Source: Candidatus Obscuribacterales bacterium
Lineage (GTDB): Bacteria; Cyanobacteriota; Vampirovibrionia; Obscuribacterales; Obscuribacteraceae
Assembly: GCA_965228855.1 (NCBI GenBank)
Contig: CBDDIJ010000003.1
Coordinates: 2,496,001 to 2,560,000 of the forward strand
Direction: 5' to 3'
DNA length: 64,000 nt
Shown: one piece after another, positions 28,960 to 61,374 of the stretch
Position numbering within the stretch: the first letter of the stretch is position 1
Layout of the letters: each line of letters begins with the position of its first letter
Made by a program: the position numbers and the translations under genes
Notes under the pieces: generated by a model
What the model was told of the DNA's origin: nothing
The model's input: the letters and a program-made list of their open reading frames with translations, nothing else
The model's database searches: none

Positions 28960-31900
28960 TCAGGCTGAAGGTTGAAGTCTAATTTCAATCCTCGTGAAAT
29001 CGACGGGCGTGGGCGGAACACTTTGGACCTGGCTGTTCTTAACGTTGCCGGCAATGTAATTAGTCCTGTACACGCTCCAATTGCGCGAAAAATCTTCAAC
29101 AGCCATCGTGCGGACAACCGGCGACGGGAGGTGCAAAATCATGGTCGACTTGACTCCGTTTTTACCATTGCGAGTCCGCGACGTCGCATCCGGCGTACAG
29201 TCGTAAACAGCAGCAGCGGCCCAAACACCGTCCACGCAAATTTCGAGTTTAACAAAGGAGTTCGACGGGTTGCTAGCGAAATCACTGACGACGATTCTGG
29301 CATCGCGTGCCAAAATTTTGACGTCTATAAGCCGTTCAGGCTCAGGTGCGACAAAGACTGTCGATAGTCCGCAGTCGATATCAGACACGTTGTCTTTTGG
29401 AACGTTGGCTTTTGAAACGTCATCACTTGGAACGACGATGCTGGAAGTCTTATCGCGTGAAACGATGCCGTTCGAAACGATAGGATTCGAAACGTTAGCG
29501 TTCGCGACGATGGCGCCTGAAACGATGCCGCTTGAAACGATGGCCCTTGAAACGATGGCGCTTGGAGCGATCATTGTGTCACCGCCTGTAGAGGCATGCA
29601 CAAACATACCATCGACAAGAGGATGAACTCCATCGTGGACCAAAGCGGTATTCACGACATCGGACTCAATGGCTTTGTTCAGACGATCAATTGCATCGGC
29701 AACGTCTTTGACGGAGTTGGATAAACTCAGTTGAGGCAAATCCCTCACGGTTGTCCGCGGATTCGAGTTTTTAACAGAAGAGCCACAAGTGGCGATGAAC
29801 TCACTTTGAAGGACATCACGTGCTCCGGACTGCTTTTGCTGGGTAACCTCTCCGCTCAACCTTGGAGCAGCTGGGTTGATGCCTCCACTCTTCTTACTAA
29901 AGAAATTTTTTCGATAGATATTCAATTCAGGATCGCTCGGAAGCCAGATAACTTGACCACCGTAGACGAACGGAACTTTCACATTTTCCGCAAGCCTGTA
30001 AAGAATTTCAGCCCTGTTTATCGTGACGATAAGATCGGCAAATCGCGCGTCACCCAGTTGAACTGCGGCGATAGACTCGATGGTTTCACCCTCTTGAACG
30101 GTATAGCGAACTCGAGTGTCAACAGACCAAGTTGAGGTGCCAGCCTCCGATTCAGCTTCATCCTCTTTGGCTTCGACTTTGGCCAAACCGACAACTTCGG
30201 CAAACTTCAACGCCGCTTTCAAGCCCGGGAAGTATAAAACTTCATTGTTGTAGCGGAGCGCTATTTCGCCGTTTTGAAATGCAATGCCTTCCGGTAGTGG
30301 TAATCCCAGCCGTATTGCATCCGCAATACTTGCCACCATATGAGGCGTCAAAGTACCGCGGCTACCGGTATCACCTTTAGCACCATCCAGCGGTCGGCCG
30401 ACGGCTGTGTCAGTTCTCGAACCAGACGATGCGTCACCCTTGATTGCAGTAACTCCATCCGGCTTGCCGGCGGCGACTCCATCACTCTTGTTGCCTGCAG
30501 CACCATCAATTTTTGTCCCGCTGGCGCCGTCGATTTTTATCGAAATTGCTCCATCGCTCTTCACTTGCGCGGAGCCCTCGGCTTTACTTGCGGAAATATT
30601 ATCAACCTTCGGACCGGCAGTAATCTCCGATTTTATAGCGACGGCATCGCTTTTCGAGACGGTGGATATGATATCGCTTTTGGTGACTGGTGACGGTTCT
30701 AACCTGGTTGAGAATGTGAGATCACTTTTTGAAGTTGCAGCGTTATCGACTTTTGAAAATCCAGCAAACTCGATTTTCGTGGCAGTAAGAGCAGCATCAA
30801 TCCTGTTCTCGGAATTGAACTGAACTTTCGCAACACCGGAATCGAGCCTGGTGGCAGTTGAAATCGGCGCACCATTGAGAGTTCCTCGGATTGACGGCTG
30901 TAATTCTCGAAGATTCAAACCACTTGCGCTTCCAGTGCTCGATGCCGCATCAGAGCTCCGAGCGACAGTCACGGTTTTCAATACAGGAATTTCTTTAGGG
31001 GCAACAGAAATATCGATTCGAGTCGAGTTCATAGGCATCTTCGCAACGAATCTGCCAATCGCCGTGACGTCGAGTGGAGCCGTATCAATCCTGCTTCCGT
31101 CAGATTTTCTTTGGCTGCCCAGATCTACGGGTTTCAACAACTCCCGGGAAACATATTCATTAGCCAAGCCACCGCTTTTGGTGACATTTTCAACGGCATC
31201 CTTCGAGATGAGAGCAGAACTTCTGTTTAAATTAGTTCCAGAGTGGGATTCAGGAACGGAGCCTGTTCGAGTACGACTGGTGACCACACTCGATACTTTT
31301 TCGATTCCAACAGTTTCGTTTGCCGTTGCTCTGATTCCATTTCCGACAGTGCCATCAACCAGAGAATTTTGACGATTTAGAACGCTTGCTTTCTCTGGCA
31401 AAACTTCCAGTTGGGGAAGTTTAGTCACGGCAGTCGAGGTTGTGAGATTTGTCGGATGCCCGACGTTCTCAATTGCTGAATTGACTGATTCTACACGATT
31501 GGGTACGGGCAACTTAGGCAGTACCTCGGCACCGTTTTCGATACCAAGATTTTTCGATGATGATGGAATGGCAGGAAGAAAAGACTTTTCAATTGCAGAG
31601 CCCAGCCCGATTGTTTCAGCTAACGGTTTGCTTTGTACACCGGAAGTCTTACCGTTCTCACTATTCGGAAGGACAGGTGTTAGTAACGGTCCAAGACCAG
31701 ACGGATTAGGACTTGAAGGAACCGAAGCAGGTTTGTCCGTCTGGAGTGACTTGACGGTAATTGGCGAATTTTCCGGAGAAACTGCCGTCCCATTCAAATT
31801 AGCAATAAGCTCACCTAAGGGAACAATGGATCCTTGAGGTGGATCGACAGTCTTCGCCACGGGCTTGTCTGTTGTATGCGCAAGCGCCGGTGCAGGGATA

Positions 31901-33216
31901 ACATCAGGTAACTCTGAATTACCTCCGACAGGCTTGAGCGTTTTTCCAATCAAATCGCCCAGCGTGCCAGTGTCAGTCTTTGCACTCGGTCTAAGCGGTT
32001 CTCCTCCCACAGGTACAGCATCCGGAAGGAGGTTGTTTAAACTCTGTACGACAGAAACTTCAGGCGGCCGTCCAGAAGGAGGGTTTGCGGAATTGGTATC
32101 GGTGGTGAGAGATATAGGACTGCCCGAGGGCGCATGGCTTCTAAGAATGGCTGGTAAGGCAACATCGCTTGGCCCATCTTTCACAGGTTCTGCCTTAACC
32201 ACCGGCGGAAGAGACGCAGGTGTTTCCAACCTCGGCACCGTCAATTTAGATGCCGGTGGCGTGGGCGTGACGTTCTCGACGACATTAAGCAATCGACTCA
32301 AGTCGCTCGCCAGATCAGGATTGTTGACAGGCGCCAACGATTCATAGTCGGACGAAGTGACGCTCCCTTGCTTAGCTGGTTTAGCCGGCGGTAAAATTCC
32401 GTCGCTCAAAACTTTCACAATCGACTCCGGCGATGGGGACGCCGATAAAGGTTTAGTCCCAGCAGGCTCTACCTGCGCGGGTGTCGCCAGGCTAGATTCA
32501 CCATGGGCGGTGCCGCTGAAGACTTCAATACCCGGCAATATCGAAAGTTTGGAAGCCGCGGGAGACGGTTTCGCACTGTCGGACAGTGATGGTTTGGCAG
32601 TGAAGGATGTTGAAGAGTTCTGAACTTCGATGCTGATGGATGGCAGGTGAGGTGTCGCAGTTTCGACTATGGGAACTGGCTTGATTCCAGCATTGGCAAC
32701 CAGTGCAGCCAGGGGCGCTGATGGTTCCGCACTATCGCGAAGAAGATCCGCCCCATTGTGTTTCGTCTCAGCGTGCCTGGGCGTTGGTACCGAAACATTA
32801 TCCTGGGACGCGGCAGCCACGACCGGCAGAATTTGAAGGTCTCCCGGTCCGCTGTCATCCTTAGTATCTTTATCCTTGTTAGGATGCGGAGCCTCGACGC
32901 TCGTTTGAGCAAGAATCTCTGACAGCGACTTTGCAGCACTGATACTTACGTCACTGGGACCAGCCTCAGGAGAGGTGCTGGAGGTCGAACCAGATTTCAT
33001 GACCGGCAACGAGGCAAGGGACACATCACCGCGAATTCCCGCAGGCGAGGCCGAATGCGAAACCTCCGACGAGACCGCGGAAGGTACAACGTCCCCGGCA
33101 GAATGAGGAGCTGTCACCGAATCTGATTTCGGTGGTGCGGTTTCGAGAATATCAATCTGAAAATCCAAATTGGCAGGCGCATCGGACTGCCCAGTAGGCG
33201 CGAAGAAATCTTCCAT
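28960..33216 (-). CDS. Giant low-complexity protein with one LysM-like domain and shared C-terminal domain (paralog 1)
   Basis: P/S-rich body; RYTVQEGETIESIA..LGD..LIVTIN..GQVIWLPS; LP..MAVEDFSRNWSVY; start ATG 33216 or TTG 33333. Confidence 0.85.
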   Translation of the reverse strand: MEDFFAPTGQSDAPANLDFQIDILETAPPKSDSVTAPHSAGDVVPSAVSSEVSHSASPAGIRGDVSLASLPVMKSGSTSSTSPEAGPSDVSISAAKSLSEILAQTSVEAPHPNKDKDTKDDSGPGDLQILPVVAAASQDNVSVPTPRHAETKHNGADLLRDSAEPSAPLAALVANAGIKPVPIVETATPHLPSISIEVQNSSTSFTAKPSLSDSAKPSPAASKLSILPGIEVFSGTAHGESSLATPAQVEPAGTKPLSASPSPESIVKVLSDGILPPAKPAKQGSVTSSDYESLAPVNNPDLASDLSRLLNVVENVTPTPPASKLTVPRLETPASLPPVVKAEPVKDGPSDVALPAILRSHAPSGSPISLTTDTNSANPPSGRPPEVSVVQSLNNLLPDAVPVGGEPLRPSAKTDTGTLGDLIGKTLKPVGGNSELPDVIPAPALAHTTDKPVAKTVDPPQGSIVPLGELIANLNGTAVSPENSPITVKSLQTDKPASVPSSPNPSGLGPLLTPVLPNSENGKTSGVQSKPLAETIGLGSAIEKSFLPAIPSSSKNLGIENGAEVLPKLPVPNRVESVNSAIENVGHPTNLTTSTAVTKLPQLEVLPEKASVLNRQNSLVDGTVGNGIRATANETVGIEKVSSVVTSRTRTGSVPESHSGTNLNRSSALISKDAVENVTKSGGLANEYVSRELLKPVDLGSQRKSDGSRIDTAPLDVTAIGRFVAKMPMNSTRIDISVAPKEIPVLKTVTVARSSDAASSTGSASGLNLRELQPSIRGTLNGAPISTATRLDSGVAKVQFNSENRIDAALTATKIEFAGFSKVDNAATSKSDLTFSTRLEPSPVTKSDIISTVSKSDAVAIKSEITAGPKVDNISASKAEGSAQVKSDGAISIKIDGASGTKIDGAAGNKSDGVAAGKPDGVTAIKGDASSGSRTDTAVGRPLDGAKGDTGSRGTLTPHMVASIADAIRLGLPLPEGIAFQNGEIALRYNNEVLYFPGLKAALKFAEVVGLAKVEAKEDEAESEAGTSTWSVDTRVRYTVQEGETIESIAAVQLGDARFADLIVTINRAEILYRLAENVKVPFVYGGQVIWLPSDPELNIYRKNFFSKKSGGINPAAPRLSGEVTQQKQSGARDVLQSEFIATCGSSVKNSNPRTTVRDLPQLSLSNSVKDVADAIDRLNKAIESDVVNTALVHDGVHPLVDGMFVHASTGGDTMIAPSAIVSRAIVSSGIVSGAIVANANVSNPIVSNGIVSRDKTSSIVVPSDDVSKANVPKDNVSDIDCGLSTVFVAPEPERLIDVKILARDARIVVSDFASNPSNSFVKLEICVDGVWAAAAVYDCTPDATSRTRNGKNGVKSTMILHLPSPVVRTMAVEDFSRNWSVYRTNYIAGNVKNSQVQSVPPTPVDFTRIEIRLQPSA
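29455..29565. repeat. 15-bp coding tandem repeat (IVSxx, about 7 units)
   Basis: GAAACGATG recurs with 15-bp period. Confidence 0.75.
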
Positions 33217-33414
33217 GGCGGTAAATAATTGGGGCGATGGGGGAAGAAACACGAACGCGATACAAAGGGTTATGGGGGGTATCGAGTTGCGTAGTAAAAC
33301 TTCAAGGGGCATTGGAAGTTTGATATACGTCAATATGCGAAACGGAAAATTCCTGGACAGTCGGCGAGATTAAATCTCGTCGACCGAGAAGAATTGCCGT
33401 GACAGCCGGTCCTA

Positions 33415-33443
33415 TTGACATCCGAGCGAACCGCGCATATGAT
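33415..33443 (+). promoter_or_regulatory. Sigma70-type promoter
   Basis: TTGACA-17 bp-TATGAT, about 160 bp upstream of the 1835-aa gene. Confidence 0.8.
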
Positions 33444-33601
33444 CTTGTCGCCACGCCTGTATGCACCCGACTACAGCAGGTCCCTTACTATCGATCAAAG
33501 TAGACGACCGGAGACACGCCCCTCGACGAGGGGTATGAAGTAATAGTCGCCTTAACCCCTCGAAATCCACTTACCTTATTTGATAAACAGCGGAGTAAAA
33601 G

Positions 33602-36600
33602 ATGGCTTCAAAGTCAACGGCAGCAGCGCAAACAGATCAGACGCCGACATCTACACCAGGCAACGCTCAGCTCGCCCAAACTCAGGCTGGGAGAGATACA
33701 ACGCCAGCAGCCGGCAGTGACGCCACAACTGGTGTTGCACCACATACGGAAGTACTGCAGGGCGACAACGTCCTCAGCCAGAGTCCTCAGCCAGGCACTG
33801 CCAACGAAACTGCCGCGAAGATCATTCAACAACAGAACGAAGCGACCGGTGTGGGGGGTGTTCGCGGCGACGCCAACAATCCTATTAATACTGCGCAGAC
33901 GACAGCAGAAGTTCGACGAGCAGAAGCCGTCGCAAGAACAACCAGCACGACTCCGACCGATGCTAAGGCTCCGGTCTCAAAACCAACAGACACGGCTCCT
34001 GCGACACCGACAACAGCAGAGACTCGCAGGCAGGAAGCACTGGCAAGAACGACCTCTACACCGGCAGACGTAAAACCGCCTGCCACCACTCCTGGTGACA
34101 CTCCGGCAACCACGCCGTCGGTTGCGGAGACGCGCAGACAAGAAGCGCTAACTAGATCGAGCAGCACGCCTGCAGATGCGAAACCGGCAGATGCAAAACC
34201 GCCGGCAGCGAATCCAGTCGAAGCGAATCCAACGTCGCCGACCACAGCAGAGACCAGACGGCAAGAAGCATTAGCTAGAACTACTGGAACACCCACCGAC
34301 GCGAAACCGGCAACAGGAAATCCTAACGACACGAATCCAACGGCACCGAGTTCTGCTGAAGTTCGAAGACAAGAATCCCTTGCTAGAAACACCGGTACGA
34401 CCGTCGATGGAAAACCGCCGGCCGCCACCGCCGGTGATGCCACGCTACCCGGACAATCGCCCGCAGAAACTAGGCGGCAAGAAGCTTTGACAAGGACTGG
34501 AACCACGCCTGGTACCACGCCTGGTGCCGAGGTGAAAGCTCCGGCAGCCAACCCGGGTGAGGTCAATTCGCCGACTCGCTCGCTTCAGGATTCCAGACTT
34601 CAGAGCGCCCTGGATAGAAGCGGTAAGGGACCCGCCACCGGCGAGCAGCCATCCGGCAGCAATCCACTCGGTCCTACTGCAGAGCAGAGAAGAGCCGACG
34701 CAATAGCGCGTACCGGTGCACCTGATGTGAAACCCGCAGCGCCCCGAACCGATGCCACTGCGGTGACACCTGGAGCCAGCCCGGCAGAACAGCGTCGGGC
34801 TGAAGCACTCACCAGAGCCAATGCTACAGACAACAGACCGGCTGCACTCGCAGGCGACGGGAAGCCGCCTGTTCAACCAACTGGCGACGTGAAACCGGCT
34901 GCGGCATTATCCCCGGAACAGCGCAGAGCAGAGAGCATTGCCAGAAACAATGCCACAGATAACAGACCTGCAGCACTCACCGGCGACGGAAAGCAGCCCG
35001 TTCAACCAACTGCAGAAGTTAAACCAGCTCCGGCACTCTCGCCGGAACAGCGCAGAGCGGAAAGTATTGCCAGAAACAATGCGCCGGATAATAGACCCGC
35101 AGCACTTGCCGGTGACGGGAAAACACCTGTACAACCGACTGGCGAAGTTAAACCAACTCCTGCACTCTCACCAGAACAGCGCAGAGCGGAAAGCATCGCC
35201 AGGAATAATGCACCGGATAACAGACCCGCAGCACTTGCCGGCGACGGCAAAACAACTGTGCAACCGACTGCCGAAGTGAAACCGACTGCGACACTCTCAC
35301 CCGAACAGCGCAGAGCCGAAAGTATCGCTAGAAATGGCGCGACGGACCACCGCCCACCCGGCACAGTTGCGGATGCCAATCCGACGAGAAACATCACCGG
35401 AGACCCACCCGCGACCGGTACGGAGCGACTGAAAGGACGAGATCGGGTTGCTGACGCACCAGCGGACACGGCAAAACCGCCAGGAAAGGGCAACGCGACG
35501 GGCGACACAGTGAGACCCACGGTTAAGGCGGATGCTCCTGCCGATGCGGGAAGACGTGCGGTCAAAGCCGATGCCACAGATACCGGCACTCCTCCAGGCA
35601 GTGGTTCCACCGACTCGTTCCTGAACGGCCGCCAACAACGACAGCTTGAAACACTTCGGCAGCAAGCAGAAACCGGAACCCTCACCAGAAGCGAGCAGCG
35701 CCAACTGGAAAGACTCACGGCACTTGAAACGAGGAAAGCCGAAATTGCTTCCGCACCCACGGATCCGAGAACCCGAGCACCGAAGGTAGAAACGGTACCC
35801 AAAGCAGAAGCGCCGGCAGGCGAGGTACCCAGACCGCCGAGAGCGGAAGCACCTGGAAGCGAGTTGCCCAGAACTCCAAGAGCCGAAGCGCCGGTAGCTC
35901 AACCTAAAGAGAACAGACGAGGCACCACTGAGGCACCAACCGGAAACCCCACAGGCAATCCGTTAGTCAACCCTGATGGCAATCCTAAGGGGCGCAATAG
36001 AGATGGAGGCGTCACTGCGGAGCAGCCGCCAGGTACCGAGCGCGGACCATTTAAGCCGGGTGCTGATCCAGCTCTCAAGCCTGGCGTTGAATCTGTGTTT
36101 AAACCTGGTGGAGAACAGGCATTTAAGCCAACCGCTGATATGTCTCCCAGAGACATTCGCAGAGCACTTGCGGAAGCGCGTCAAAACCAGCCCCTCGATC
36201 CTGCTCAGCAAAAGTGGCTGGCAGAACAAACAGCTAAAATGGGCGATGGTCGCAGTCAAAACTTCGCGAGAAACTTCGAGAATCTATCGCCACAAAATCG
36301 CGCCGCTCTGATGGGTCTGGAAGGACCGCAACAAGGCGATATGATTGCCAAGCTCGGCAGAGGTCGTGCCGACATCTCAGCAATTGAAGGAAAGCTGGGC
36401 GCAGTACCAGGAGGAGATCTCAGAGCCGGGCGCACCGCAGATGGTGCCGTTGCCGGAGGCAAACCTCCACTCGGTTTGGACGGTCTGAAAGGTCCTGGTG
36501 GCGATCTTGCCCGCGGTCCTGGTGGCGACCTCGCTCGAGGTCCTGGTGCAGACCTGGCCAAAGCGCTGCAGCGCGCAGACCTCAAAATTCCTGGTCTAGA

Positions 36601-39109: not shown

Positions 39110-39671
39110 GTTAGTTGCTGCCACTATATATAGTACTAAATCTAGTGCAACATATGATACGACCTGGTATCGTTTCTGATACCAGTTTAAAGACTTTCTA
39201 AATTGATTCGACACCGTATTCAGTATCAATAAGTACTGCGAGAATTGAACCTGTTGATTTGGCAACCGAACGAATTCTGGAAAGTACTCCTGGGTGTATG
39301 CGAAAAAATCGTTTTTGGGACAGACCGAAAAGTTAAATTCGAGACCCGAGACGTCCGCCAAGAATTAATCTATTGGACACGGAAAAGCCTCAATTTACGG
39401 CTCGTTCGTAGCAAAAATGTATTCCAGACAACAGTAAACTCCCTCTAATATTAGTAGTATAAGCATGTCAAGTTAGCCGATCCCACACCCCTCTGGATCT
39501 GACTTGGCGGGCACTAAGGCTGGCACCTTCACTTTTTTGATTGCTCTTTACTACCCCTGAAGCTTTCGCGCCCACACTGTTGCCGTTTCCCAAGCCGTGC
39601 AAGCGGTTTCAGGAATCAGTGAGATGTGTATATAGAAAGTAGATCAGACATCTAGAGCAAAAAAATCTCTC

Positions 39672-54600: not shown

Positions 54601-57497
54601 CTGCTGGCGGAGTTGAACAGTCGCACTACACATTCGTGTACTCCAACGGCGAAGAGAACAAGCAAGTTCAAATTCCAAGCGACTGGTCAATTTCCTTCGG
54701 CGATGATGGAAATCAAATAGTCTCCGACGCAAGCGGAAATCCGATGATTCTCCTGGACGGCGACTCGGCTAAGTACGTCGGTCCGGAAGAATTCCAAAGT
54801 CTGTACGGAGACCTGGACGGCGATGTCACCATTCTCGATACGGTGCAGTCGGTTCAATCCTCTGCCGGCCGTGTTACGCTCCTTGATTTCAACCCTGGCA
54901 GCAACGATAGCACCGTTAGCGGTGTCACCAACCTGCTCGATTCTTCAGCGCAGGTCTTGAGTCAGAATCCTCAAATCGATGCACTCGGTCCGGAACAAGC
55001 CCCGGCAACAGTTGATCCGAACGCAATCGATCCGAATTCCGTCTCACTCAATACGGACTTGGGCATGACCGACCCAGGTCTGCCGATGTTAAACACAAGC
55101 ACTCAAATTGATCCTATCCTTGATGCATTCAACGACCCACCGGCAATGGGCAGCGCCATCGATCCTGTCGCAGGCATGCCTATCGATCCGACCACCGGTC
55201 TTCCTTACAATCCGGAAACCGGAAAACTTCTAGATCCTTCAACAGGTCAGGAAATAGGCAACTATGTTGCGCAGGATAATTCGATTAGCGGAACCACCGG
55301 TATCATCAGTGGTGACAAGACATCGCCGATTGCAGAGAATCCTGGAATCAGCCAGCCAGAAGCCGAGAGTTCACAGAACCTGGCGGATATTCTAAATGAC
55401 GAGATTCTTCGAATCCACGACAACATCGAGTCGCGCCTCGAAGAAATTAGAAATGGTGTACATGGAACACGGATAGACGACGATAGTGTTATCGCGAGCT
55501 TCGCTCCTGAATCGGCGTCTGATGTTTCCTCCAGAATAGACGATATCGATAAAGTCGCCGACGAACGCGAGCAGCACAAGCAAGATCGCATCAAAGACGA
55601 AGAGGAACGCAAGCGCGACGAGGAAGAAGAGCGGCTCAAGAAGCGCAAAGAGGATATCAAAAAACTCGCAGACACGATGCAAGCAATCATCGCTACCAAG
55701 CGTCGTGAGGAGATGGAACGCGTCAGAAAGCTGCTGGAGCAACAACGCAAGATCGAAGAATTCATCGTCAAGGATACGCGCCAGTCGAAGTACACCGTAC
55801 GCTACGGCGATACACTCGAGTCGATCGCTAAGAAAATGTTCAAAGATCCGCGTGTCGCAACCCTTATCTACGATATGAACAAGAGCAAGGTAACTGCCGA
55901 GAACGTCGACGGCAAGTCTGTCTACCATGTCAAGCCGGGTACCGAACTTAAGCTTCCGAGCCCTCGTCAAGCACGCGAATGGGTTATGCGCGGCAAGCAC
56001 ATGCAGACCGATCAAGCAGCAGCAGACAAGGTCCGTAAAATCACGGAGAAAGAGAAAGCTGAACTCGACGACCGTCGCAAGCACGTCGAATCGATGCTCG
56101 GTGCCGTCGGTTATGTTGGACCGAATACCGAGGACGGCGGAGTCAAATACAACGTACGGCTGGGTGATTCGTTGCGTTCAGTAGCTATGAAACATCCGAT
56201 GTTGAACGACGTTAGTCTCTGGAGACTGCTCGCAGAGAAGAATGATTTGCCCACTACCACCGACAATCATGGTATACCGACTGCCATTCTGAAACGTGGA
56301 ACGAAGCTCCTGATGCCGACGAAGCAAGAAATTGTCGACTTCCGGAAGAAGATCGGCGTGCTTACGCACCCCGCCTCGACCTGGATCAACAACACTTCCA
56401 AAGACGGTCCTGAATCATCTATTCACTCGAAGAAGTGCTCGGACTGCAAACGTCAAGCTCCAATCGGCGTGGCGATCTGCCCGAGCTGTGGTCATATTTT
56501 CGAATCTGTCATAACCGGCGGCGTCGCCAAACAATCATTCACAATCGTCACGAAACCGCCGAAGGCCGGTATCCAAACCAAAGACGATTCGATTACCGCC
56601 GACTCCAATCGCAAGAGCGGAGTTAAGACAAAGGACGACGAGTTCGCAAAGGATCCGCTTGTCGAAACGGCTGACGATAACAAAGTCGTTGATCTCTCTA
56701 ACCATGGCGTATCCACATCAGAAGAAGTTTCAATTTCTGAAGACGGCGAACCGGCGACTGCCACTGCCAATGGTGCGAAGACGAACGACCAGTCAGGCGT
56801 CAAGACTACCGAAGAGCGCAAACCTTTTGTTTCAACGTCGTCGAGTGACAACGGCGTACCAACAGAGGAAGATAGAACGGTATTCGTAAATCCAGGCGCA
56901 TCAGTCGACCCAAGCAGCGCGATAACTCAAGAGCTCGGTGACGATTACGAGAATACAGTCATCGTCAAAGATGGCATCGTCACGGCCCAACTACCGGACG
57001 ACTCAGATTCGACCGTGATAGTAACCGGCGCGCCGAAGCAACCAATCTCGGACGCAGTCAGCGCTTCCGAAAGTCTACTTCAGGGCATATCTTCACTTCA
57101 TAAGCGTGCTACTACTGGCGGTGTCGATACAGGTGGTGTCACGACCGGTGGCGTCAATACGGGTGGAGTTTCCAGCCAGCAACTGCAGGTTGAACGCTTC
57201 ACAGAACAATTGAGTGAGACTTGCCGACTTGTCCAACTAGATTCCTCACGTGCTAACAAGCGCAGCACCAGACTTCAACTCGAAGTGCTTCGCGACGGCA
57301 AGTGGTCACCTGTAATTGCATACGAAATCGCTGCGGAAAAATCAGTCCGCCACGAGTACAGCCTGAGCGGAAAGACGAAGTCTATGAAGATGGACCTACC
57401 GAGCGGCGCTCTGGAAGCGATGGTGCAAAACGACCTGACCCGCAACTGGAAATCATACTGCGAAAAATTCCTGACCGGCAAGAAGATCTCGGCTTAG
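39672..57497 (+). CDS. 5941-aa giant protein: YD-like beta repeats, helical repeats, coiled coil, T/Q/G stalk, 2 LysM-like, Zn ribbon, shared C-terminal domain (paralog 3)
   Basis: Uninterrupted 17.8-kb ORF; KYTVRYGDTLESIA, YNVRLGDSLRSVA, CSDC..CPSC, DLP..MVQNDLTRNWKSY. Confidence 0.92.
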   Translation: MADKPDPKAENAKDPSTEPVKPTSDSTASKPDAGDSHVVSSTNPNVQTDVAASSMTDAVEKAQTLNQAERQDQTGTQFVQGPDKSDVELFDSSKEPASDAAKKTGDSDQPEKKEVAESADTGVKTEQSESKPDAGTEAILSKLPADHQRVLEGLPPDARANFAKQIDGMEGEFAQKMKAQQLSALVDTFNKTTKNGENAKIGDTINVEGVVRSIQAERARGTSAANRGGSATAALVSEAPPTRTEATDPNHGTIAEARQPVKRETSTPTAPSDVPSSQVATGDVPVTVVKSAEPVDIASADPRKAEAEQRQAAGDKQVSDFIATQTGEAKAPADSRKSIAQQGFEPKPGAYNPVNVPGFSEEGVGDQHTSLKESKVDNYDIESRQMSSMTRNSDNSITRTYTGAIDTAGMISFSSDTTFQAHETITKDNKLESRSVTYNQPLELTFDTPDGPKKIADVKAVDTKYDAARDRYVSTIRSADGSQHEAIVKTDGSVEKFEQTVKLTTAEYTKGVETKVWQDRNGTITQVQEGDERWSKQSGTDKWVKQNANGDYIDANNKVVSSASEAASFTGRYEFVTSPQKGLAKVDTAQQQAITKYADGSQERIVGLKGAPEFTVRTSADGKVSLDSQCGHFSVDDKSMEVLPNGDIKFKDTDGQKTLNTDGSLTSTYSNRTNSFQSVTEGFSPEGGRYIKSINFGEQAKISGMDMAGTWTLGEDGKLHNGSKTFDGELKLKDSSTLSYTVMAPEGVEGNGVLHGDGSNYTAYYDAGKNFSKSVEGLKDGSTIERRYSFTPDEQKELNARYGDQFNFNEITRTDAKGQTIKLIEAASKGHVDGEDDSHIVQATDPTGRTWSLINQDKNTWGEIDAKGKPVKGTNGEQNTFTGNWAMRKDGSGNSTVTRIIGAQSETNNAFSARFLVDYRSDGEITITNQEVPMIGYSTDAMIGPGVQRGANGDLTITSVNTKDQLTIKANGDVVSSNLALNPYGTTGLVEGTDAEGQNYVKEITFNGQSTTGPGAGTWRRDGDSSSEKWQQIDSSGKPTGKTFDGEITMNSRLSGDMTIKDNKKHTVDSVTTATGFERHEQYASNNKDLVSSYEKAPDKSTITHDVTSDSKTIKEYGLDEHVKPPVDKTVVTDANGNKITYYSAKDAEGKDYTARVDAPSGTWIRGGDSSSNQWNKATAETNEKGDTVYKQTGETFYGNVERVGKTAIFTNDRDNQRTYYQPDGSFERQLLTEKTEVLSNLDVRSTKQPEYTIRSDARGNRSIVDNNTGKTYSTTDGAGNPLKVDDKGNMTFTDGSGRTITIAQDGSRKVVDANKNELTTDAGGRMLQQKDANGKTVANYNYEQKGDQVYLKSFENASGYWEMTQLADGKQKWDLMNGKDGATATMQADRIYINRDNSMVLENGDQRTVRKLDGTEIVETSVMTGDITTTTVVVGKRDGENFTPAYTLKTTTDKHDIQTQELESAGERAVRGKDGIWTSTDLKTGEVTKFAGQISIDDSGTLRKVTFETERNGDTVTVLKNKDGTPRISNTVDVYTNGSSWQSYENGAMVSRDRDGDVQFRQTAAGEVTRIDYSTTSPKEVVGFSQGNTYWKFNKETGKYVPTDINNPSKILDQQNDAQVTITINNRNGDIVRTNIPTGDVNTSKLDGTTELHRKDNTIVYTDSQGRPTKQIDANKNEFDLTYGPKGDLSSIKARIYTGVDDKGQPTYKDMMVRTEDYTGPGAETAIVGKNLKIEGFNDRYLAYENSKGHRVEIYPDTTMREFAGKDVTSGVIRVDLPSKVTVLAKGYDEKSTEQPFEDLAKRGPIIRDAEIVATPKTDFDRLRALGRDLPAPPATPQEIKASERSIIYKNADGNVVERWANGATQEFQKVPKTPGSSETVTRIKSSTDSTGRYIEYSYDDSKVVSTVPNKIEITAMVPGADGKMVPSTSVLQRDKDGNATWTEAGKQPVAIKNFNVLDNRIMIAHTSDDPNNPKFLEFIDTRNATSQVIGKDRSLTDFDAQGRMTHKRDAAGNEFNFFYKGDDKIPSTLQNMDGSWTRTVDSQNPNSSEQTWVHAESGAVWKGTVSTEGGIYKFENAEGKQTIHQADGTDRSTYRDGTVEVSKEGKVLSVTDTTGNITKYEYGEDGNAPYPTDFKVYNADGKVVANSDSFVKRNSDGSIDAANQIKKIEIDPATGRPVVTYNSDSVMKLSVNGVGIVSDKESKITGLFRPEDHKFIESGKDGVKEITVDKNGKIEIKKGDGSSEYFKSEGTRVVTDAAGNSIEAHSIDGVTVLKYDYALNEKTGKSELTSLTRMTKDEKGVDQITKIVKDGDKFVERSGTSEANLKPTGNVYDSMSSYSDNVYFYNKAQKTQRTIDANGTEWEVRRFGEGSDERFTRVERDTLGRVTTVQDQNYNITHFVRNADGELTRIIQGDDELFKTKDNTWVSSANPDLQIHLKDGAAGPTITANGDQIWQDKDNVTRTVKADGSVEISRPDGSQTIISADGSLTRTIYSPTGGGEVQEVRAGKDGSVQVIMRNGDVLSQSAYSKIITSTTRTPAEFEGSLEVGKDGQLTFFTQSDKSTNVYFSDGRAKYLQHVVTGDIGAIVSKDLKGQSPENIKAITDAIKARPADAESVLKEYGIDKDSAQGRQLMKDLEAAMMYTDKNSEAVYSSLNDLGAVGPYRIDNEFNMNDAREVNTMNRGLDALNRSYYAPEQQTPTNSQQPGQIPQTQTNPNGPPPGSDLAGGSPPISDHGQAQNVVDENARRIEATLKTATKADGKPLSSEELKDVASQLSSNPQNAEALLKEKGFDTSTAKALSDTIKSQHDTANDTARDDIIKQALKDGGVPANRIDEIAGQIKADPNNIEKILERNSVPADSVPKIMDSYKSDMAALDKAAGSIIGDNLKRSGLPAEKQAEVAAQIQAHPENALQILRDAGVPEANATRIANEINKDMRTFNQIRETAESRHIDAQTAASVALETYNNPENVTAALARAGVEASVAREVGQQASRDVVSDNVIVAPTPVIVAPAQNGPPTDVIRTGSHTNVNDIPPNTTDVANDFNRSRAQVDALNAAAEQQRVANFEQKREVGSKADERADRVGDEIAKEAIREEARAKERLESDNKHREEQRQQEQRDAEKRAEEQQRVQKQQEEERTRREEEQRKQAEEIKQRQEQERRELEERQKDERERADKARLESLEREQRVAKDNLLKQQEQARLERDRSLAESNRQKDLADQRATGGKIETEKPAPVVGKFEGQTQTNPRNTTDSTAPTTPPRPPETRGETRQPDAPRTTTPGSDVRQPEAPRTTTGPDARQPDAPRTTPGSETRQPDAPRTTPGSETRPQEAPRTTTGADARPQETSKLPGSDTRPDVRPSSTPLEAGSARPTTVPGADLAKAQTAGSASAPDGALKRDAAGNFTKVDANGSVIKVDASGKPITTKEAPLGKTGELGPDGKPVESVDTKGDTSKTSADKGDGDHNSPIVVPGTVTPPAGEVVQKPAGPAPAVPVEGGALDRSGTAPAGDIVKGPGKMSDTVAENTVDKVTPQPGPVQPGSVSGTTTTTANQSTGATPPGGQDPAQTVPAGQAPGHTPPAAGSQTTAPATDPLNRSTVDPSGNVTTLPAGSQPPAGQTQTQTQTGKEPSAPAGTQTSPVGTAPTQQQGQGQNPGPTQGQGQTPAAQDPSTQSPGTGTTPQPAGQGQGQTQPQQPSTTAPATDPLNRNSAPSGPATQPTGQTPAAQTPAGQAPTGQEPSQQTSSQTSPGTGQTQTGQTQTGQTQSGQPTSQTPAGQTQTPAGQAPTGQTPAGQQPTGSSTPDPLPKTTTDPGTTTQVPAGQTQSGQSNTGQPTTGQTTTGQPTSGQPTSQTPTGQTSGQNQTGQQQTTPTGSSTPDPLPKTSTDPGTTTQVPAGQTQTGQTTTGQTTTGQTTTNQPTSGQPTTGQTPTGQQPSGQTGTSTPDPLPKTGTEPGTTTQVPSGQTQTGQSTTGQTTTGQPTTGQPTGQTPTGQQTSGQTGTATPDPLPKTGTEPGTTTQVPSGQSTSNNAGPTGQTTTGQTTTGQTTTGQPPAGQTPSGQTPTGQTTTGQEPAQQLPKQSDPGSTSTTTGHLPTSGQTTPGQTQSPTSGQTTGQTDPQSQQSPTGLPSQTVPSGHAGQTQNPTGTTSQQGTASTPTSDPSTSLPKTVDPNAPASTTGNTTTSTHTGTTQSGTVPTGTNTTGTTTTGTTQTGTNPTGTSQSGTAPTQTPQTGAPSGSTQGGTVQNGNVTTDPSSGMPAGTTTSHATQTTSTGNAPAGPSSDPGSIGNASSHGSAAPTHSSTSGQAVNAAVQDMASQIATTAVVVAVINSMSSHGSQQPQVQQKPTVDPGSTTVSSTPPQLPSSAPSSYSQPANHSGSTTYTPPASSTTSNTDPSSNTSGGSTTISTGSSTTHTSSTSTQAPASPQPASEPTSSSSQPQSTNPEPKQVAQASEPTAQPSPQHHSNAPQTNTATTPPSTHAPSVSTTVQPGTLQQQPQSSNPAHSISNTSQNQTAEPAHSTATSQSAQPAPANSGNIASTTTTQNSTSSAPDPSQASSVGNTDDEQSHSHASAATHANATQQGPADPGQNAQPTTTTVVHTQTANRSQHQGQQNTAPQPRQAAQPASHNTSGAHGQQGQTPAQQAPAHTASGGTTSGNSSSSTSGNTDPTATTAANSPSTSAAHTTSATTGAHASASPTGAQASTAQGTPADPAAKTNLNNTDPNNDPNAVGIVSNTQADPSSSSSDPTANSQDPAQSQISQDPSMAQDPSMTQDPAGVQDPSIVQDPSTSQDPSTTQEPSTTQAQDPSSAQQQQEPSESQKQAPSSSSEESDVTAISDRSEQMEAQKYANDSQETQLQREPQESIDKQPVVDDWSVEPTYDAAAERARIEAQVDSYFESQKTVDPPFVDMSGDRVIEKHMPDGTTLLTFNDGVSAWVKGDQVTVIDSEGDISSFVGRIDTADGNVTIYDANDIVIHSTEPIVESAGGVEQSHYTFVYSNGEENKQVQIPSDWSISFGDDGNQIVSDASGNPMILLDGDSAKYVGPEEFQSLYGDLDGDVTILDTVQSVQSSAGRVTLLDFNPGSNDSTVSGVTNLLDSSAQVLSQNPQIDALGPEQAPATVDPNAIDPNSVSLNTDLGMTDPGLPMLNTSTQIDPILDAFNDPPAMGSAIDPVAGMPIDPTTGLPYNPETGKLLDPSTGQEIGNYVAQDNSISGTTGIISGDKTSPIAENPGISQPEAESSQNLADILNDEILRIHDNIESRLEEIRNGVHGTRIDDDSVIASFAPESASDVSSRIDDIDKVADEREQHKQDRIKDEEERKRDEEEERLKKRKEDIKKLADTMQAIIATKRREEMERVRKLLEQQRKIEEFIVKDTRQSKYTVRYGDTLESIAKKMFKDPRVATLIYDMNKSKVTAENVDGKSVYHVKPGTELKLPSPRQAREWVMRGKHMQTDQAAADKVRKITEKEKAELDDRRKHVESMLGAVGYVGPNTEDGGVKYNVRLGDSLRSVAMKHPMLNDVSLWRLLAEKNDLPTTTDNHGIPTAILKRGTKLLMPTKQEIVDFRKKIGVLTHPASTWINNTSKDGPESSIHSKKCSDCKRQAPIGVAICPSCGHIFESVITGGVAKQSFTIVTKPPKAGIQTKDDSITADSNRKSGVKTKDDEFAKDPLVETADDNKVVDLSNHGVSTSEEVSISEDGEPATATANGAKTNDQSGVKTTEERKPFVSTSSSDNGVPTEEDRTVFVNPGASVDPSSAITQELGDDYENTVIVKDGIVTAQLPDDSDSTVIVTGAPKQPISDAVSASESLLQGISSLHKRATTGGVDTGGVTTGGVNTGGVSSQQLQVERFTEQLSETCRLVQLDSSRANKRSTRLQLEVLRDGKWSPVIAYEIAAEKSVRHEYSLSGKTKSMKMDLPSGALEAMVQNDLTRNWKSYCEKFLTGKKISA
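49480..49745. repeat. About 13-aa coding repeat (RQPDAPRTTPGSE/D)
   Basis: 5-6 units visible in the translation. Confidence 0.8.
50800..52330. repeat. Nested coding repeats: (TTGQx)n pentapeptides with four TPDPLPKT..PGTTTQVP anchors
   Basis: GGTCA at ~15-bp period; anchors at 51063, 51285, 51483, 51663. Confidence 0.85.
53900..54080. repeat. 18-bp coding repeat (QDPSxx)
   Basis: CAAGATCC recurs; about 9 units. Confidence 0.8.
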
Positions 57498-57552
57498 AGC
57501 GTTCTGGTTCGAACGCTTACCGCCGCGCTTGAGTTCCTAAAGGCGCTCGGAT

Positions 57553-58128
57553 TCAGTCTGCCGTCAGCTCCCGGAATCTAGTAAGTTCGCCATCATGGGT
57601 CATGTTGCGGAGCTTGTAAACAACATCGACGGTAATTCGCTCACCCTCAACTGTTAGAAAGTGGTGATTGTTATCATCGTCGAAAAAAACCGCATAGTGT
57701 TTCAGCGTACCGGGTTTCTGCTCCCAGTAGTAAAACAACGAGCGTCCATTGAATTTCGCACCTGGAACTCTTTTGCGCTCACCCCAGACATCGACAATGA
57801 TTCCAGCATCGTCCATCATGAGTACAATCTCTTCGGCGGGTCCCTCGTCCGCATCTTGAAACGGCAGCTGCGGAGGATGTAGAACCAAAAATTCATCTGT
57901 GAATTCTGCTACCGGAGCATTGCGACCAGCAGAGGAGAACGTTTTTCCGCGACTGTCGCGCAGCGTTTTTTTCAGGTCACGAACATCGAGTTCGTCCACA
58001 AAACTGAGCGATTCGGTAAACTGCTCACCGGATGGGAAAGCATTTCCTGTGCCGGTCGGAGAAACACCTGGCAGACTTGCATGTCCGCCCTGGGCATCGT
58101 TGTTAGATTCGTCGTCTTGAGGGTCCAT
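57553..58128 (-). CDS. Hypothetical protein downstream of the ATPase
   Basis: 191-aa ORF; disordered N-terminus, beta-rich C-terminus. Confidence 0.7.
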   Translation of the reverse strand: MDPQDDESNNDAQGGHASLPGVSPTGTGNAFPSGEQFTESLSFVDELDVRDLKKTLRDSRGKTFSSAGRNAPVAEFTDEFLVLHPPQLPFQDADEGPAEEIVLMMDDAGIIVDVWGERKRVPGAKFNGRSLFYYWEQKPGTLKHYAVFFDDDNNHHFLTVEGERITVDVVYKLRNMTHDGELTRFRELTAD

Positions 58129-58173
58129 AAACTATTCTGTTCCAACCGCGCTTCGTGCTTGAGACCTAGTCTA

Positions 58174-61100
58174 CTAACCTTGTTGTTCCCCGCCGCCTTC
58201 TTCACTTTCCTTCTGGAAATTCTCCAGAGCTGTTCTTACCTTGTGGAGCAAGACCAACTGAGCGTCCGTAGATAGCTGCTGATCCTTAATCAAGTGCGCC
58301 GCCAAACAGTACGCCAGATCGACATCCCCCTGGCTTACCAGACGTTCAGTAAGCAGTCGGCAGAACCACGCAGCAGAGTCGGAAGCCGGCGTGTCCTTTC
58401 GGTTAATCGAAGAATTGAAGTCGAATTTGATTTTTGGATCTCGAACAACTTCCGACACTTCGAATCGATACAAACACTTCGAAGTGCACGGACCACAGGT
58501 AGGAAGCGGTCCCTGGTCACGTTTATGCAATTCGATAAAATCATCGCGCCACTGGCGCAAAACGTTGATGTCCAGTTTTCGGTTCACTTCAGTGGGTTGG
58601 AAGGCTGGTCTCAAGAGGTTCAACCATCGCATGTGCTGCTCTCTCACCTGGTCGTAAAACCAATAATTTTCCTCGCCTTTGCGCTCGAAATATCGTTCGG
58701 TCGCCTGAGTCAGAACGCACCAGGTGATGCCGGTAATATTTCCGGTTCTCGCCCGACCGCCGATGACCCGCTGAATTTCGTGGATAATCTGGGCACGAAA
58801 GTGAACCAGCTGAGTCAAATCTTTCAGCGTGGATAAGAGATAGCGGTTGTAGACTTGCCTGAAAAGCGTATCGTCAGCGACGGGAACTGCTGTGTCCAGA
58901 ATCGTCGAATCGCATCGGTGCAAACAAAAACGGCAGCCGAGATGCCGGTCGAACTTGCCGACGATATCTAACGGTTTCATCGCCTGCCTGACGACTTCAT
59001 CAGATTCTTCCGGTGTCCTCGGCGGTGGCACCTCTTTTGTCTTGTCGAACATGATCGCAAGGTGGAACGGTTGTTCCATCTTCTCAGCGTAAACAATCGC
59101 GCGCCCCTGTCCGAGCGCTGTTACGTGCCTCTTTTGAATGTCGTCCAAGTTCATAGCACCGCCCATGGAGTCACGGTCATCGACCGCCACGATACGGTGC
59201 ATAACTTTCAAGTTAGTGTTCTTCAACGCTTCCGGAGCCAGTTTGTTCGGGATTTGGTCCGCGATGATGAACCCTTGTCCATACGAACGAATTTCTGCAA
59301 GCATGTTGGTGAAGAATTCAACTGCTTTACCCGCAGGGTTGGCGGATTCACCTGATTGCCCGGTCGGCACGTTCTTCAAAAGACGGTGAGCCTCTTCGAT
59401 CAACATGACGTGTTTCAAGTCATCGTGCGGACCGCCGGCTTCTCGATATTCATAGAGGAATACGAGCAACATTCCCATGAGGAAAGACTTTTCACTATCT
59501 TCGGAAACCATCTTCAGTTCGATAACTGTAGGTCTTTTGAACAGCGCTTCAGCAGGGATTGACCGGCGCGTGTTTAGCATCTGCCCCTTACCGCCAATCA
59601 GTAGTGAGCCGATACGGGCTTTCAGAGCGGCTTGTACGTCAGGTCCGATTCTTTCTGAATATCCGAAACTCTCGACGACCGGATCGATAATTTCAAAAAG
59701 ATCCTTCATTGTCGGGTAAATTTCCGGCGGGCAATCGGGGTCGCCAGGGTCGATTCCCGGAGGCAGTCGCCTGTTCTTGTTGTTTACCAGATCCCATCCG
59801 CGAACGTTATAAATTTCGTTCAACGCTTTTTCCAATACCTGCGGCATCGGAGAATACATTTCGAAACTGGCGTTAAATACTGACTTGAGCGCGTCCAGGT
59901 GGGTTTGAACTTTTACGCCTCGCATGATTTCGAAAGGGTTCAATCGAAACGGTGATACTGTTTCATCACCCAGAGAAAACGCCTGTCCAATACCTTTAAA
60001 CTGTTCGGACATCAGCATCATGTGCCGATATTCTGATTTCGCCGGCTCGATAACCATGAATGGAATCTTGTAATTCCAAAGTTGACCCAGCAAGTAGAAG
60101 CAAGTATTCGTCTTGCCGCCCCCTGTTACTCCGCAGACAATGGTGTGTTTCTGCATAGCGTCAACGTCGATGTAATAAAGGTTTCCCGTATCCATGCCGC
60201 GATCGAGGATGTTCCCAATCGCGATCGTTCGCGTCGGATCCTTTGGAGGAACCGGCGCTAGGGAAAACTCTGCGGATCTTCGAATTCGGAAGCCCGGCAT
60301 CTCACGCTTCGGCAAATGAACAAACGCAGACAGCATGCGAGAGTTCAGCGGCGTCAAAAATTTGTACTCTAAGAGATCTTGGAAGATTTCATCGTTTCGT
60401 TTGTTTCTAAGCAATCCGAAAGATTGTACGTGAGGTTGAAGCCCCTTGATCTCGTGCGTGCGAAGCGGTGTCGGACGGCTGGTCTCATCAACATACGTTG
60501 CGCGAATCAAGGACTGTAGCCTGACAAATACAGAACGATCCGGAGCAAAGAAGTAAACAGCAGTCAACCAGTGTCCGACCGCGATACCCAGCTGAACATG
60601 CTTCAAGTAAGCATCTTGAAGTTCGAGATAATATTTGATTCTTCGTTTCTTTTCCGGGTCTTCGTTTTCCTGTGCGCGCTGAATCTGGTCGACAACAGTC
60701 ATCTCTTCCCGGTTTACTTTCTGGTTTGGAATCGGGATTGCGAGCACGAGGAAGCCGAAGTCATGCCCCTGAAGACCAGTAGCAAGACGTTCTATCTGTT
60801 CCGATTCCATGGTATCACCGGCAGTGGACTTCAAAGCCGGGATTCCTGTAACAAGACCGGTATGGACAGCAAGTGGATCAACCATGCGCTTCATCTGCTC
60901 CGTCGTAAACGGCTCATTATGAATATCAACACCGTTGTAGACACTGTGCATGATCGAGCGCAAAGACGTATAAGCAACCATATTCGCACTGCTGTCGCCG
61001 TTGCCGGTTGAGTCGGCAGGCAGCGAGACGCCCATATAGTAGTTGACCCCGGTCTTGTTTCCGAGTACAACGAACGAAAGATTAGCTTTCTGGCTGTGCA

Positions 61101-61374
61101 AGCCGGTTAAGGCATCCTCAGACAGGTACATACGCTTGGGCGGCTTGCTCGGATCCTGGTCTTGTTGAGGCTGTTGACTCTGTTGATTCTTTTCGCGCTC
61201 GATGTCCCAAGACCGCAAGACACCATCGATGCGCACGAAGGTTAGGTCAGGGAGCGGCCAACTGTGCAACTGGGCTCCGTCGAACGGTGTGACCTCGAGG
61301 TCATCAAGGTCATAGCGCCTGAGGTCGGCGATTTTCTCTTCCCAAATGTTGCGGTCTCTAGATGTACTCACCAA
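58174..61374 (-). CDS. HerA/FtsK/VirB4-superfamily P-loop ATPase (DUF87-like)
   Basis: HTIVCGVTGGGKT Walker A, VIEPAKSEY, LNPFE, MLIEEAHRLL Walker B, EIRSYG, IADQIP. Confidence 0.9.
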   Translation of the reverse strand: MVSTSRDRNIWEEKIADLRRYDLDDLEVTPFDGAQLHSWPLPDLTFVRIDGVLRSWDIEREKNQQSQQPQQDQDPSKPPKRMYLSEDALTGLHSQKANLSFVVLGNKTGVNYYMGVSLPADSTGNGDSSANMVAYTSLRSIMHSVYNGVDIHNEPFTTEQMKRMVDPLAVHTGLVTGIPALKSTAGDTMESEQIERLATGLQGHDFGFLVLAIPIPNQKVNREEMTVVDQIQRAQENEDPEKKRRIKYYLELQDAYLKHVQLGIAVGHWLTAVYFFAPDRSVFVRLQSLIRATYVDETSRPTPLRTHEIKGLQPHVQSFGLLRNKRNDEIFQDLLEYKFLTPLNSRMLSAFVHLPKREMPGFRIRRSAEFSLAPVPPKDPTRTIAIGNILDRGMDTGNLYYIDVDAMQKHTIVCGVTGGGKTNTCFYLLGQLWNYKIPFMVIEPAKSEYRHMMLMSEQFKGIGQAFSLGDETVSPFRLNPFEIMRGVKVQTHLDALKSVFNASFEMYSPMPQVLEKALNEIYNVRGWDLVNNKNRRLPPGIDPGDPDCPPEIYPTMKDLFEIIDPVVESFGYSERIGPDVQAALKARIGSLLIGGKGQMLNTRRSIPAEALFKRPTVIELKMVSEDSEKSFLMGMLLVFLYEYREAGGPHDDLKHVMLIEEAHRLLKNVPTGQSGESANPAGKAVEFFTNMLAEIRSYGQGFIIADQIPNKLAPEALKNTNLKVMHRIVAVDDRDSMGGAMNLDDIQKRHVTALGQGRAIVYAEKMEQPFHLAIMFDKTKEVPPPRTPEESDEVVRQAMKPLDIVGKFDRHLGCRFCLHRCDSTILDTAVPVADDTLFRQVYNRYLLSTLKDLTQLVHFRAQIIHEIQRVIGGRARTGNITGITWCVLTQATERYFERKGEENYWFYDQVREQHMRWLNLLRPAFQPTEVNRKLDINVLRQWRDDFIELHKRDQGPLPTCGPCTSKCLYRFEVSEVVRDPKIKFDFNSSINRKDTPASDSAAWFCRLLTERLVSQGDVDLAYCLAAHLIKDQQLSTDAQLVLLHKVRTALENFQKESEEGGGEQQG

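Follow-up and report, generated by a model that had tools for sequence, protein, structure and literature searches.

Do the giant proteins of Obscuribacterales leave the cell and, if so, which machine moves them? The question is raised by a stretch of 64,000 nucleotides from the genome of Candidatus Obscuribacterales bacterium (G000:C3:2496001-2560000; hereafter the window, that is, the whole stretch analysed), in which three genes for giant proteins with a common C-terminal cassette face a run of genes that includes a HerA/VirB4-type ATPase. Obscuribacterales are non-photosynthetic relatives of cyanobacteria, widespread and almost uncultured, and the genome in question (8.2 Mb, 95% complete) encodes dozens of very large proteins for which no exit route is known. 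We propose, with a probability of roughly 0.5, that the motors of the window are a protein-export branch that would feed long, disordered proteins devoid of signal peptides into a type IV channel whose genes lie at another site in the genome. The locus itself is real, order-wide and a new variant of type IV secretion-type motors, apparently undescribed: the literature searched, with most subscription papers and supplements falling outside, held no paper on DUF7718, on Obscuribacter together with LysM or on the window locus. Export of proteins by the motors, the link of the motors to a channel and any binding discussed below are what we infer from the sequence.

The motor pair

The ATPase of 1066 amino acids (aa; 58174-61374, minus strand) consists of a VirB4-like alpha/beta N-terminal domain, a single FtsK/HerA ATPase domain with Walker A and B motifs and a Cys-rich helical C-terminal domain, and has no transmembrane (TM) segment. 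Its assignment as HerA/VirB4-type in the original prediction, an earlier reading of the same DNA, is borne out by a full-length model (predicted local distance difference test score, pLDDT, 70.9; predicted template modelling score 0.43), which folds like VirB4: the best Foldseek match was VirB4/TrwK (E 8e-9 over 818 columns, covering the N-terminal and ATPase domains), residues 42-803 aligned with VirB4 at Z 14.6 (root mean square deviation, rmsd, 15.8; 510 aligned) and comparison with the ATPase domain of another VirB4 gave Z 15.1 (rmsd 4.2, 316 aligned). The N-terminal part also resembles DUF8128 clusters. At the sequence level, the protein matches DUF87 in Pfam and not P-loop_TraG, searches of solved structures returned weak HerA hits only, and the true VirB4 genes of the genome are located elsewhere. 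Median identity of the ATPase is 82% (n=20), compared with 81% for uL2 (n=8) and 89% for EF-Tu (n=16), that is, it is about as conserved as ribosomal proteins. A second, N-terminally shorter paralogue is found at C3:2.798 Mb among uninformative neighbours, and a sister family with small genomes carries tandem duplications or triplications of the ATPase (G037:C129:8629-37880; G039:C270; G038:C116).

The convergent run of 191-, 1066- and 656-aa products proved to be as originally described, and inspection of the genes beyond position 64000, suggested at the time, extended it by a VirD4/TrwB-type coupling ATPase of 1503 aa, of which the window holds the 3' end (63515-64000, minus strand) and which continues to window-equivalent position 68026 (G000:C3:2559515-2564026). 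The coupling protein comprises a zinc ribbon, a disordered region, two TM-like segments and an ATPase domain; its Pfam matches to TrwB_AAD_bind (30.2 bits) and T4SS-DNA_transf (22.9 bits) are both above the cut-off, and its homologues display Walker A in 30/30 and the Walker B pattern in 26/30 cases. The coupling domain gave no hit against the sequences of solved structures. The membrane protein reported for the run is present and can now be specified further: this 656-aa protein (61545-63515, minus strand; zinc ribbon, disordered linker, one TM segment and beta domain) is a truncated duplicate of the coupling protein that lacks the ATPase domain, because the zinc ribbon and the beta domain are common to both; in several relatives, the second copy retains the ATPase domain. 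The last gene of the motor run encodes a soluble 191-aa protein of no known family (57553-58128, minus strand), a candidate adaptor; its co-fold with the tail domain of the giants scored 0.00, which we count neither for nor against. Channel genes (VirB3, VirB6, VirB8) are found neither in the window nor in the next 15 kb. Divergent from the coupling protein gene, in both families of the order, lies a gene for a 1009-aa disordered/coiled-coil protein (G000:C3:2564658-2567687; window-equivalent 68658-71687, plus strand), which is linked to the coupling protein more tightly than the ATPase is and the C-terminal motif of which recurs in C3:414163-415134.

An ATPase of this kind might instead be an anti-phage HerA acting with a nuclease or Sir2 partner, and its weak HerA hits in PADLOC (best E 7e-12) and NCBIfam (42 bits against a cut-off of 800) would fit that reading. 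Such a partner just outside the window had been named in the original prediction as a result that would speak against export; this objection falls because no nuclease or Sir2 gene is adjacent. The genes that flank the ATPase on its two sides encode the coupling protein, its duplicate and the 191-aa protein, PADLOC gave no hit for the 191-aa or 656-aa proteins, and the ATPase is single-copy, near-universal, conserved at the ribosomal level and VirB4-like in its N-terminal domain, so that a role in defence is largely refuted and retains a very small probability.

ATPase homologues in other phyla

Full-length homologues of the ATPase (30-36% identity, Cys-rich tail kept) are encoded by actinobacterial plasmids and by actinobacterial, Limnocylindrales and Acidobacteriota genomes, where the gene run consists of a small membrane protein, the ATPase and then proteins with polar, signal-less, repetitive N-termini. 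The next open reading frame (ORF) on the same strand had a polar, signal-less N-terminus (order-promoting fraction at most 0.23) at 13/13 full-length loci versus 5/54 annotated control genes, the downstream ORFs having been chosen by hand in GC-rich genomes, where wrong frames also score as disordered; five of the 13 loci are from Streptomyces, 11 stem from one query, and the partial-length loci L154 and L160 were excluded. The neighbour of one homologue ends in a papain-fold toxin domain (E 4e-11), whereas other downstream neighbours, without a Pfam hit, are read as bearing nuclease-like tips, and both upstream small membrane proteins scanned contain zinc ribbons (n=2). DUF7718, the family to which the terminal domain of the giants belongs, was not found in any of the five tested genomes of other phyla with the ATPase and, for this reason, the ATPase family cannot be tied to the cassette as such; what it appears to go with, judging from these gene neighbourhoods, are disordered, signal-less proteins. 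These neighbours lend some support to that part of the original prediction which had the ATPase locus exporting its cargo.

The loci in actinobacteria and other bacteria deserve attention of their own. At L146-L153 and L155-L159, a membrane protein with a zinc ribbon, FHA or PASTA and a conserved beta domain is followed by the ATPase and by disordered proteins with toxin-like tips, and this three-gene module has the appearance of a separate toxin-delivery system, as yet undescribed. Streptomyces and Rhodococcus, which can be cultured, also encode members of this ATPase family in such a run, next to disordered or toxin-tipped proteins, and therefore allow a direct test of export. Were export borne out, polymorphic toxin biology would gain a trafficking mode, and machinery of the conjugation type would prove to have become a protein exporter encoded in the chromosome.

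Type IV-like runs elsewhere in the genome

Two gene runs outside the window resemble type IV secretion systems (T4SS), their VirB6-, VirB3- and VirB8-like members being labelled by size, TM pattern and gene order. The C3 run (L185; G000:C3:3042915-3059433) encodes a 1899-aa VirB6-like protein, DUF2225-like and VirB3-like proteins, VirB4, a VirB8-like protein, VirD4 and a Replic_Relax relaxase; it has a normal GC content, is order-wide and conjugation-like, and represents a fixed core trait rather than an obvious mobile element. The relaxase family was detected in 37/39 relatives within the order and 0/21 genomes outside, the VirB4 query of the run in 39/39 and 0/21, and a second VirB4 match, at 30-33% identity, in 36/40 genomes. 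The VirD4 of this run, at 3.04 Mb, rules out the notion that the coupling protein of the window is the only one in the genome. The C2 run (G000:C2:1990062-2007731) encodes the second VirB4, a lipoprotein, two large polytopic proteins, a VirB3-like protein and two VirB8-like proteins; neither a coupling protein nor a relaxase was seen in this run of this genome. Because one genome thus possesses a channel run without a coupling protein and a motor pair without a channel, the gene complements suggest that the orphan C2 channel and the orphan motors of the window could form a split system. The genome further encodes three secretins and three stand-alone TrbI-like genes, one of which is above the cut-off and none of which belongs to a secretion cluster; the sheath of type VI secretion systems and FlhA were not found in it. 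A plasmid-type T4SS has been reported for Vampirovibrio (available portion of PMC4451040).

The main rival to protein export is that the motor pair serves DNA transfer or processing as a domesticated conjugation machine, with the giants as mating-contact adhesins or unrelated neighbours in a conserved block. Real support for this comes from the order-wide relaxase and from the known VirB4+VirD4 pairs with unknown partners, which transfer DNA (accessible part of PMC12857230). DNA is the classical substrate of FtsK/HerA/VirD4 motors; the ATPase also has a match, though a weak one, to the DNA importer CedD (E 3e-15, far under the cut-off), and mobC, a relaxase and a VirD4 gene are found close to one plasmid homologue. 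However, the relaxase of the C3 run is 480 kb away and already adjoins its own VirD4, with none at the window locus, 3/4 examined plasmids with a homologue are typed as non-mobilizable, and disordered or toxin-like proteins are encoded next to the homologues. We therefore regard DNA transfer as unlikely, albeit the alternative to be taken most seriously.

The three giants and their cassette

Coordinates, BLAST and profile searches agree on three adjacent ORFs of ~1420, 1835 and 5941 aa whose bodies are unrelated and whose C-terminal parts carry LysM-like domains and a common terminal domain, as originally reported. Giant 1 (28960-33333, minus strand; 1457 aa from a TTG start, with the first ATG, at 33216, giving ~1418 aa), oriented divergently to giants 2 and 3, has a low-complexity body, one LysM-like domain (29890-30114, minus strand; profile built on five copies), a DUF7718-like domain (29029-29328, minus strand) and a tail of ~25 aa. 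Giant 2 (33602-39109, plus strand; 1835 aa) is composed of Pro/Ala/Thr repeats, a charged coiled coil, two LysM-like domains with a zinc ribbon (37715-38545, plus strand) and the DUF7718-like domain (38807-39106, plus strand). Giant 3 (39672-57497, plus strand; 5941 aa) comprises a beta-hairpin/RHS-like region (RHS_repeat, E 1.5e-6), Gln/Thr/Gly/Ser low-complexity sequence, a coiled coil, two LysM-like domains (LysM, E 8.9e-9) with a zinc ribbon (55782-56507, plus strand) and the DUF7718-like domain (57186-57494, plus strand), predicted as a six-strand meander and one long helix. The zinc ribbon is thus confined to the two plus-strand giants. The terminal domain of ~100 aa is 24-34% identical among the three (BLAST E 9e-12 to 6e-3), and its profile matches giants 1-3 only among the 20,630 ORFs of the genome; the bodies, with low-complexity masking, gave no BLAST match at E<=1e-8 to each other or to other genes of the genome. 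Neither a signal peptide nor a TM segment was found in giants 2 and 3, for which the predicted lack of a signal peptide stands; giant 1 has one borderline hydrophobic stretch, present only with the TTG start. Two side observations concern related sequences: a short segment 5' of the coiled coil (37391-37501 and 55161-55277, plus strand) is 62-65% identical between giants 2 and 3, with a matching pattern in 12/87 cassette proteins, and in two further signal-less giants (C2:1574461-1578885 and C3:9455-14071) this LysM-like domain forms the C-terminal end and DUF7718 is lacking.

The terminal domain belongs to DUF7718 (PF24839), the profile of which matches 42/44 aligned tail domains at E<=0.05 (best 9.5e-8), and 30/30 Atlas hits of the tail domain carry DUF7718. 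A model with a pLDDT of 92.5 displays six strands and one long helix; compared with solved folds, it had no clear match (best Z 6.7, rmsd 3.0, 71 aligned) and no Foldseek hit at E<=0.001. A library-wide profile search retrieved 473 proteins at E<=0.001. Among the 150 matches listed, one of them without sequence, 88 were at least 700 aa long, and in 87 of these 88 the domain ends at most 35 residues from the C-terminus and is preceded by one or two LysM-like domains; the remaining one (P0244) is a repeat protein without the domain and was dropped as a false match. A hydrophobic N-terminus or signal peptide was found in 0/71 full-length cassette proteins. With the domain C-terminal in 87/87 long proteins and the bodies unrelated, the cassette is genuine, one constant module attached to bodies that differ.

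Where DUF7718 stands alone, its gene is short and in most cases overlaps another short gene on its downstream side, the two forming a module; no such partner lies 3' of the cassette genes of the window. The comparison with stand-alone members is based on eight sequences, six of them haloarchaeal, because searches of a large protein set gave two and three proteins. R-x-D is present in 5/8 of these and H-x-D, within a G-x-H-x-D motif, in 7/8, whereas both R-x-D and G-x-H-x-D are absent from 6/6 aligned cassette tail domains, which have invariant R, L, W, Y, P, N and W residues of their own; the position preceding the invariant Tyr varies over 44 tail domains. Because residues kept by the stand-alone relatives are lost and an invariant set of its own is kept, the DUF7718-like tip of the cassette is probably a non-catalytic binding module. 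DUF7718 may be linked to TumE; the DUF6516/TumE family gave no hit with cassette or stand-alone domains at E<=0.05 to 1. TumE-TumA are toxin-antitoxin systems (PMC10584680, in the part available).

Distribution and synteny within the order

Across 85 genomes of the order that are at least 80% complete, the ATPase was detected in 79, the tail domain in 84 and the 191-aa gene in 73, and the coupling protein was found in 34/39 relatives within the order and 0/21 outside. The same 21 genomes, from other orders of the class, yielded no ATPase orthologue, tail domain or coupling protein, bar two weak ATPase-domain hits; the predicted co-occurrence of ATPase and cassette is thereby confirmed as a common taxonomic range. 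A motor that is conserved at the ribosomal level and confined to one order points to a central, undescribed part of the lifestyle, be it attachment, competition or predation. Among the matches listed, the tail domain lies within 5.5 kb of the 3' end of the ATPase gene in 60/71 genomes with a full-length ATPase, a count that is based on listed coordinates, with 103 weaker matches outside them. Extra cassette genes are scattered in genomes of the order.

This proximity, together with the position of the domain at the extreme C-terminus in 87/87 genuine long proteins, would also fit the idea, put forward in the original prediction, that the constant module, chiefly its DUF7718-like domain, is a C-terminal signal read by the motors, perhaps via the 191-aa protein. 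Two genera offer a further hint: in 3/7 genomes of genus g13, the 191-aa gene lies away from the ATPase and within ~1 kb of a cassette gene, the one remaining link of this kind, and genus g5, in which no 191-aa gene was detected, has a giant without the tail domain beside the ATPase. By contrast, the 191-aa gene is not beside a cassette gene in the other 4/7 g13 genomes, and G304 (97% complete) has both motors, with neither the tail domain nor the 191-aa gene found. These findings, the presence of the ATPase without DUF7718 in the five genomes of other phyla and the many signal-less giants without the cassette, most of those in this genome lacking the domain, argue against the predicted signal, which we judge improbable.

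Proposed export model

In the model that we favour, a type IV secretion channel, for which the C2 run (C2:1.99-2.01 Mb) would be the counterpart, receives long, disordered, signal-less proteins from the coupling protein and the VirB4-like ATPase, and the three cassette giants would be among the cargo. Once outside, the LysM-like domains, paired in giants 2 and 3, might tether them to the cell wall or a surface glycan, the DUF7718-like tip serving as a binding module and the cassette as a whole as an anchor or functional tip, not as a general export signal. The genome encodes 41 proteins of at least 900 aa with polar, signal-less N-termini, some of them housekeeping. A broader reading, which we put forward only tentatively, is that a distinct VirB4-like family, part of a three-gene toxin-delivery module in actinobacteria and other phyla, became a fixed core gene in Obscuribacterales, where it acquired a second coupling protein as partner and came to act through a type IV channel that had been domesticated; what it builds would be a surface coat or weapon set of dozens of giants, with the cassette giants as anchored core substrates.

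Several observations weigh against export as outlined here, in addition to the hand-chosen ORFs and the share of Streptomyces among the 13 homologue loci. Discovery of a shared N-terminal motif in the presumed cargo gave a weak result (best 202 versus 175 for shuffles). A pattern noticed by eye was also rejected, being enriched only in the set from which it was derived (9/133 versus 2.5) and not in independent sets (0/71 and 1/56). The coupling protein had no match in five non-Melainabacteria genomes with the ATPase, in a search without a positive control, and the motor pair is therefore not universal. The channel is no firmer: besides the basis of the VirB labels given above, Pfam returned no hit for the VirB6-, VirB3- and VirB8-like proteins of the C3 run (the C2 run was outside the scan), TrbL was not found in the genome, and no linked VirB9/VirB10 outer-membrane core was identified, no dedicated VirB9/VirB7 search having been made. 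Co-occurrence within one order reflects kinship and is not independent evidence. The synteny expected in the original prediction is kept in the main family, yet there the whole tuf-to-feoB block is kept, with rlmB and tuf upstream in 16/16 loci for which the flank was seen, and in a sister family (three genomes of one genus) the coupling protein, ATPase and cassette genes are on separate contigs with other neighbours. As synteny is just as strong for the housekeeping neighbours and the genes have come apart in the sister family, the adjacency of the giants and the ATPase says little and is weak evidence.

The giants might also never leave the cell, acting as cytoplasmic scaffolds or condensate-formers remodelled by the ATPase. 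The lack of a signal peptide in 71/71 full-length cassette proteins is what would be expected of such proteins, cytoplasmic proteins often have zinc ribbons and long disordered stretches, and stand-alone DUF7718 genes belong to small two-gene modules. However, LysM and RHS-like repeats, as carried by the giants, are typically found in exported or surface proteins, the coupling protein that partners the ATPase is a membrane protein, and a neighbour of one ATPase homologue carries a toxin domain that needs delivery. A purely cytoplasmic role consequently seems doubtful to us, and export by the motor pair remains the preferred explanation.

Relation to known secretion systems

The T4SS of PAPI-1 and pRAW rely on a VirB4 + VirD4 motor pair with unknown partners, move DNA and reside on mobile elements, whereas in the effector-translocating T4SS of Legionella a coupling complex is formed by DotL and adaptors (both in the available part of PMC12857230). 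Like PAPI-1 and pRAW, the window has a VirB4-like ATPase beside a VirD4-like protein at a locus without recognisable channel genes; unlike them, its pair is a fixed chromosomal core trait, next to giant disordered proteins and with no relaxase at the locus, and its ATPase matches DUF87 instead of P-loop_TraG and has the extra Cys-rich helical domain. The likeness to the DotL complex is that a coupling protein and small adaptors would recruit many proteins without signal peptides; homology to Dot/Icm adaptors was not seen, no search aimed at it having been made, and the channel genes here read as unlinked, monoderm-type VirB3/4/6/8 runs. With type VII secretion systems (EccC/YueA), the window shares a motor of the FtsK/HerA family, and the N-terminal domain of the ATPase aligns weakly with ESX chains (Z 8.9 and 6.9). 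Unlike in those systems, the window ATPase has one ATPase domain rather than three and no TM segment, and WXG100 (PF06013) was not found in the 95%-complete genome, a control search being positive in 3/14.

Polymorphic toxin systems resemble the window in their long variable proteins and RHS-like repeats, and the actinobacterial relatives of the ATPase precede proteins with toxin-like tips; the window proteins differ in combining a constant tip with a variable body (87/87 long proteins). The searched text of a polymorphic-toxin paper mentions HerA with respect to type VII secretion only and does not mention VirB4/VirD4 (PMC3482391). The terminal domain of the cassette, finally, is in the same family as stand-alone DUF7718 proteins, whose two-gene modules are toxin-antitoxin-like, but it is fused to the ends of giants and lacks R-x-D and G-x-H-x-D.

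Other features of the window and genome

Another conserved C-terminal domain, ending in a helix of the K-T-x-A-V/I type, is present in ~25 proteins of more than 1500 aa in the genome, some of which have signal peptides, and in the sister family a 6341-aa protein with this type of domain sits between copies of the ATPase. A glycosyltransferase gene abuts giant 1 within the window and is adjoined by a 102-aa gene of no assigned function (27575-27883, minus strand), which is 70-82% identical across the family. Between M16 peptidase and DinG genes lies a separate, conserved LysM protein of 262 aa (21823-22611, plus strand).

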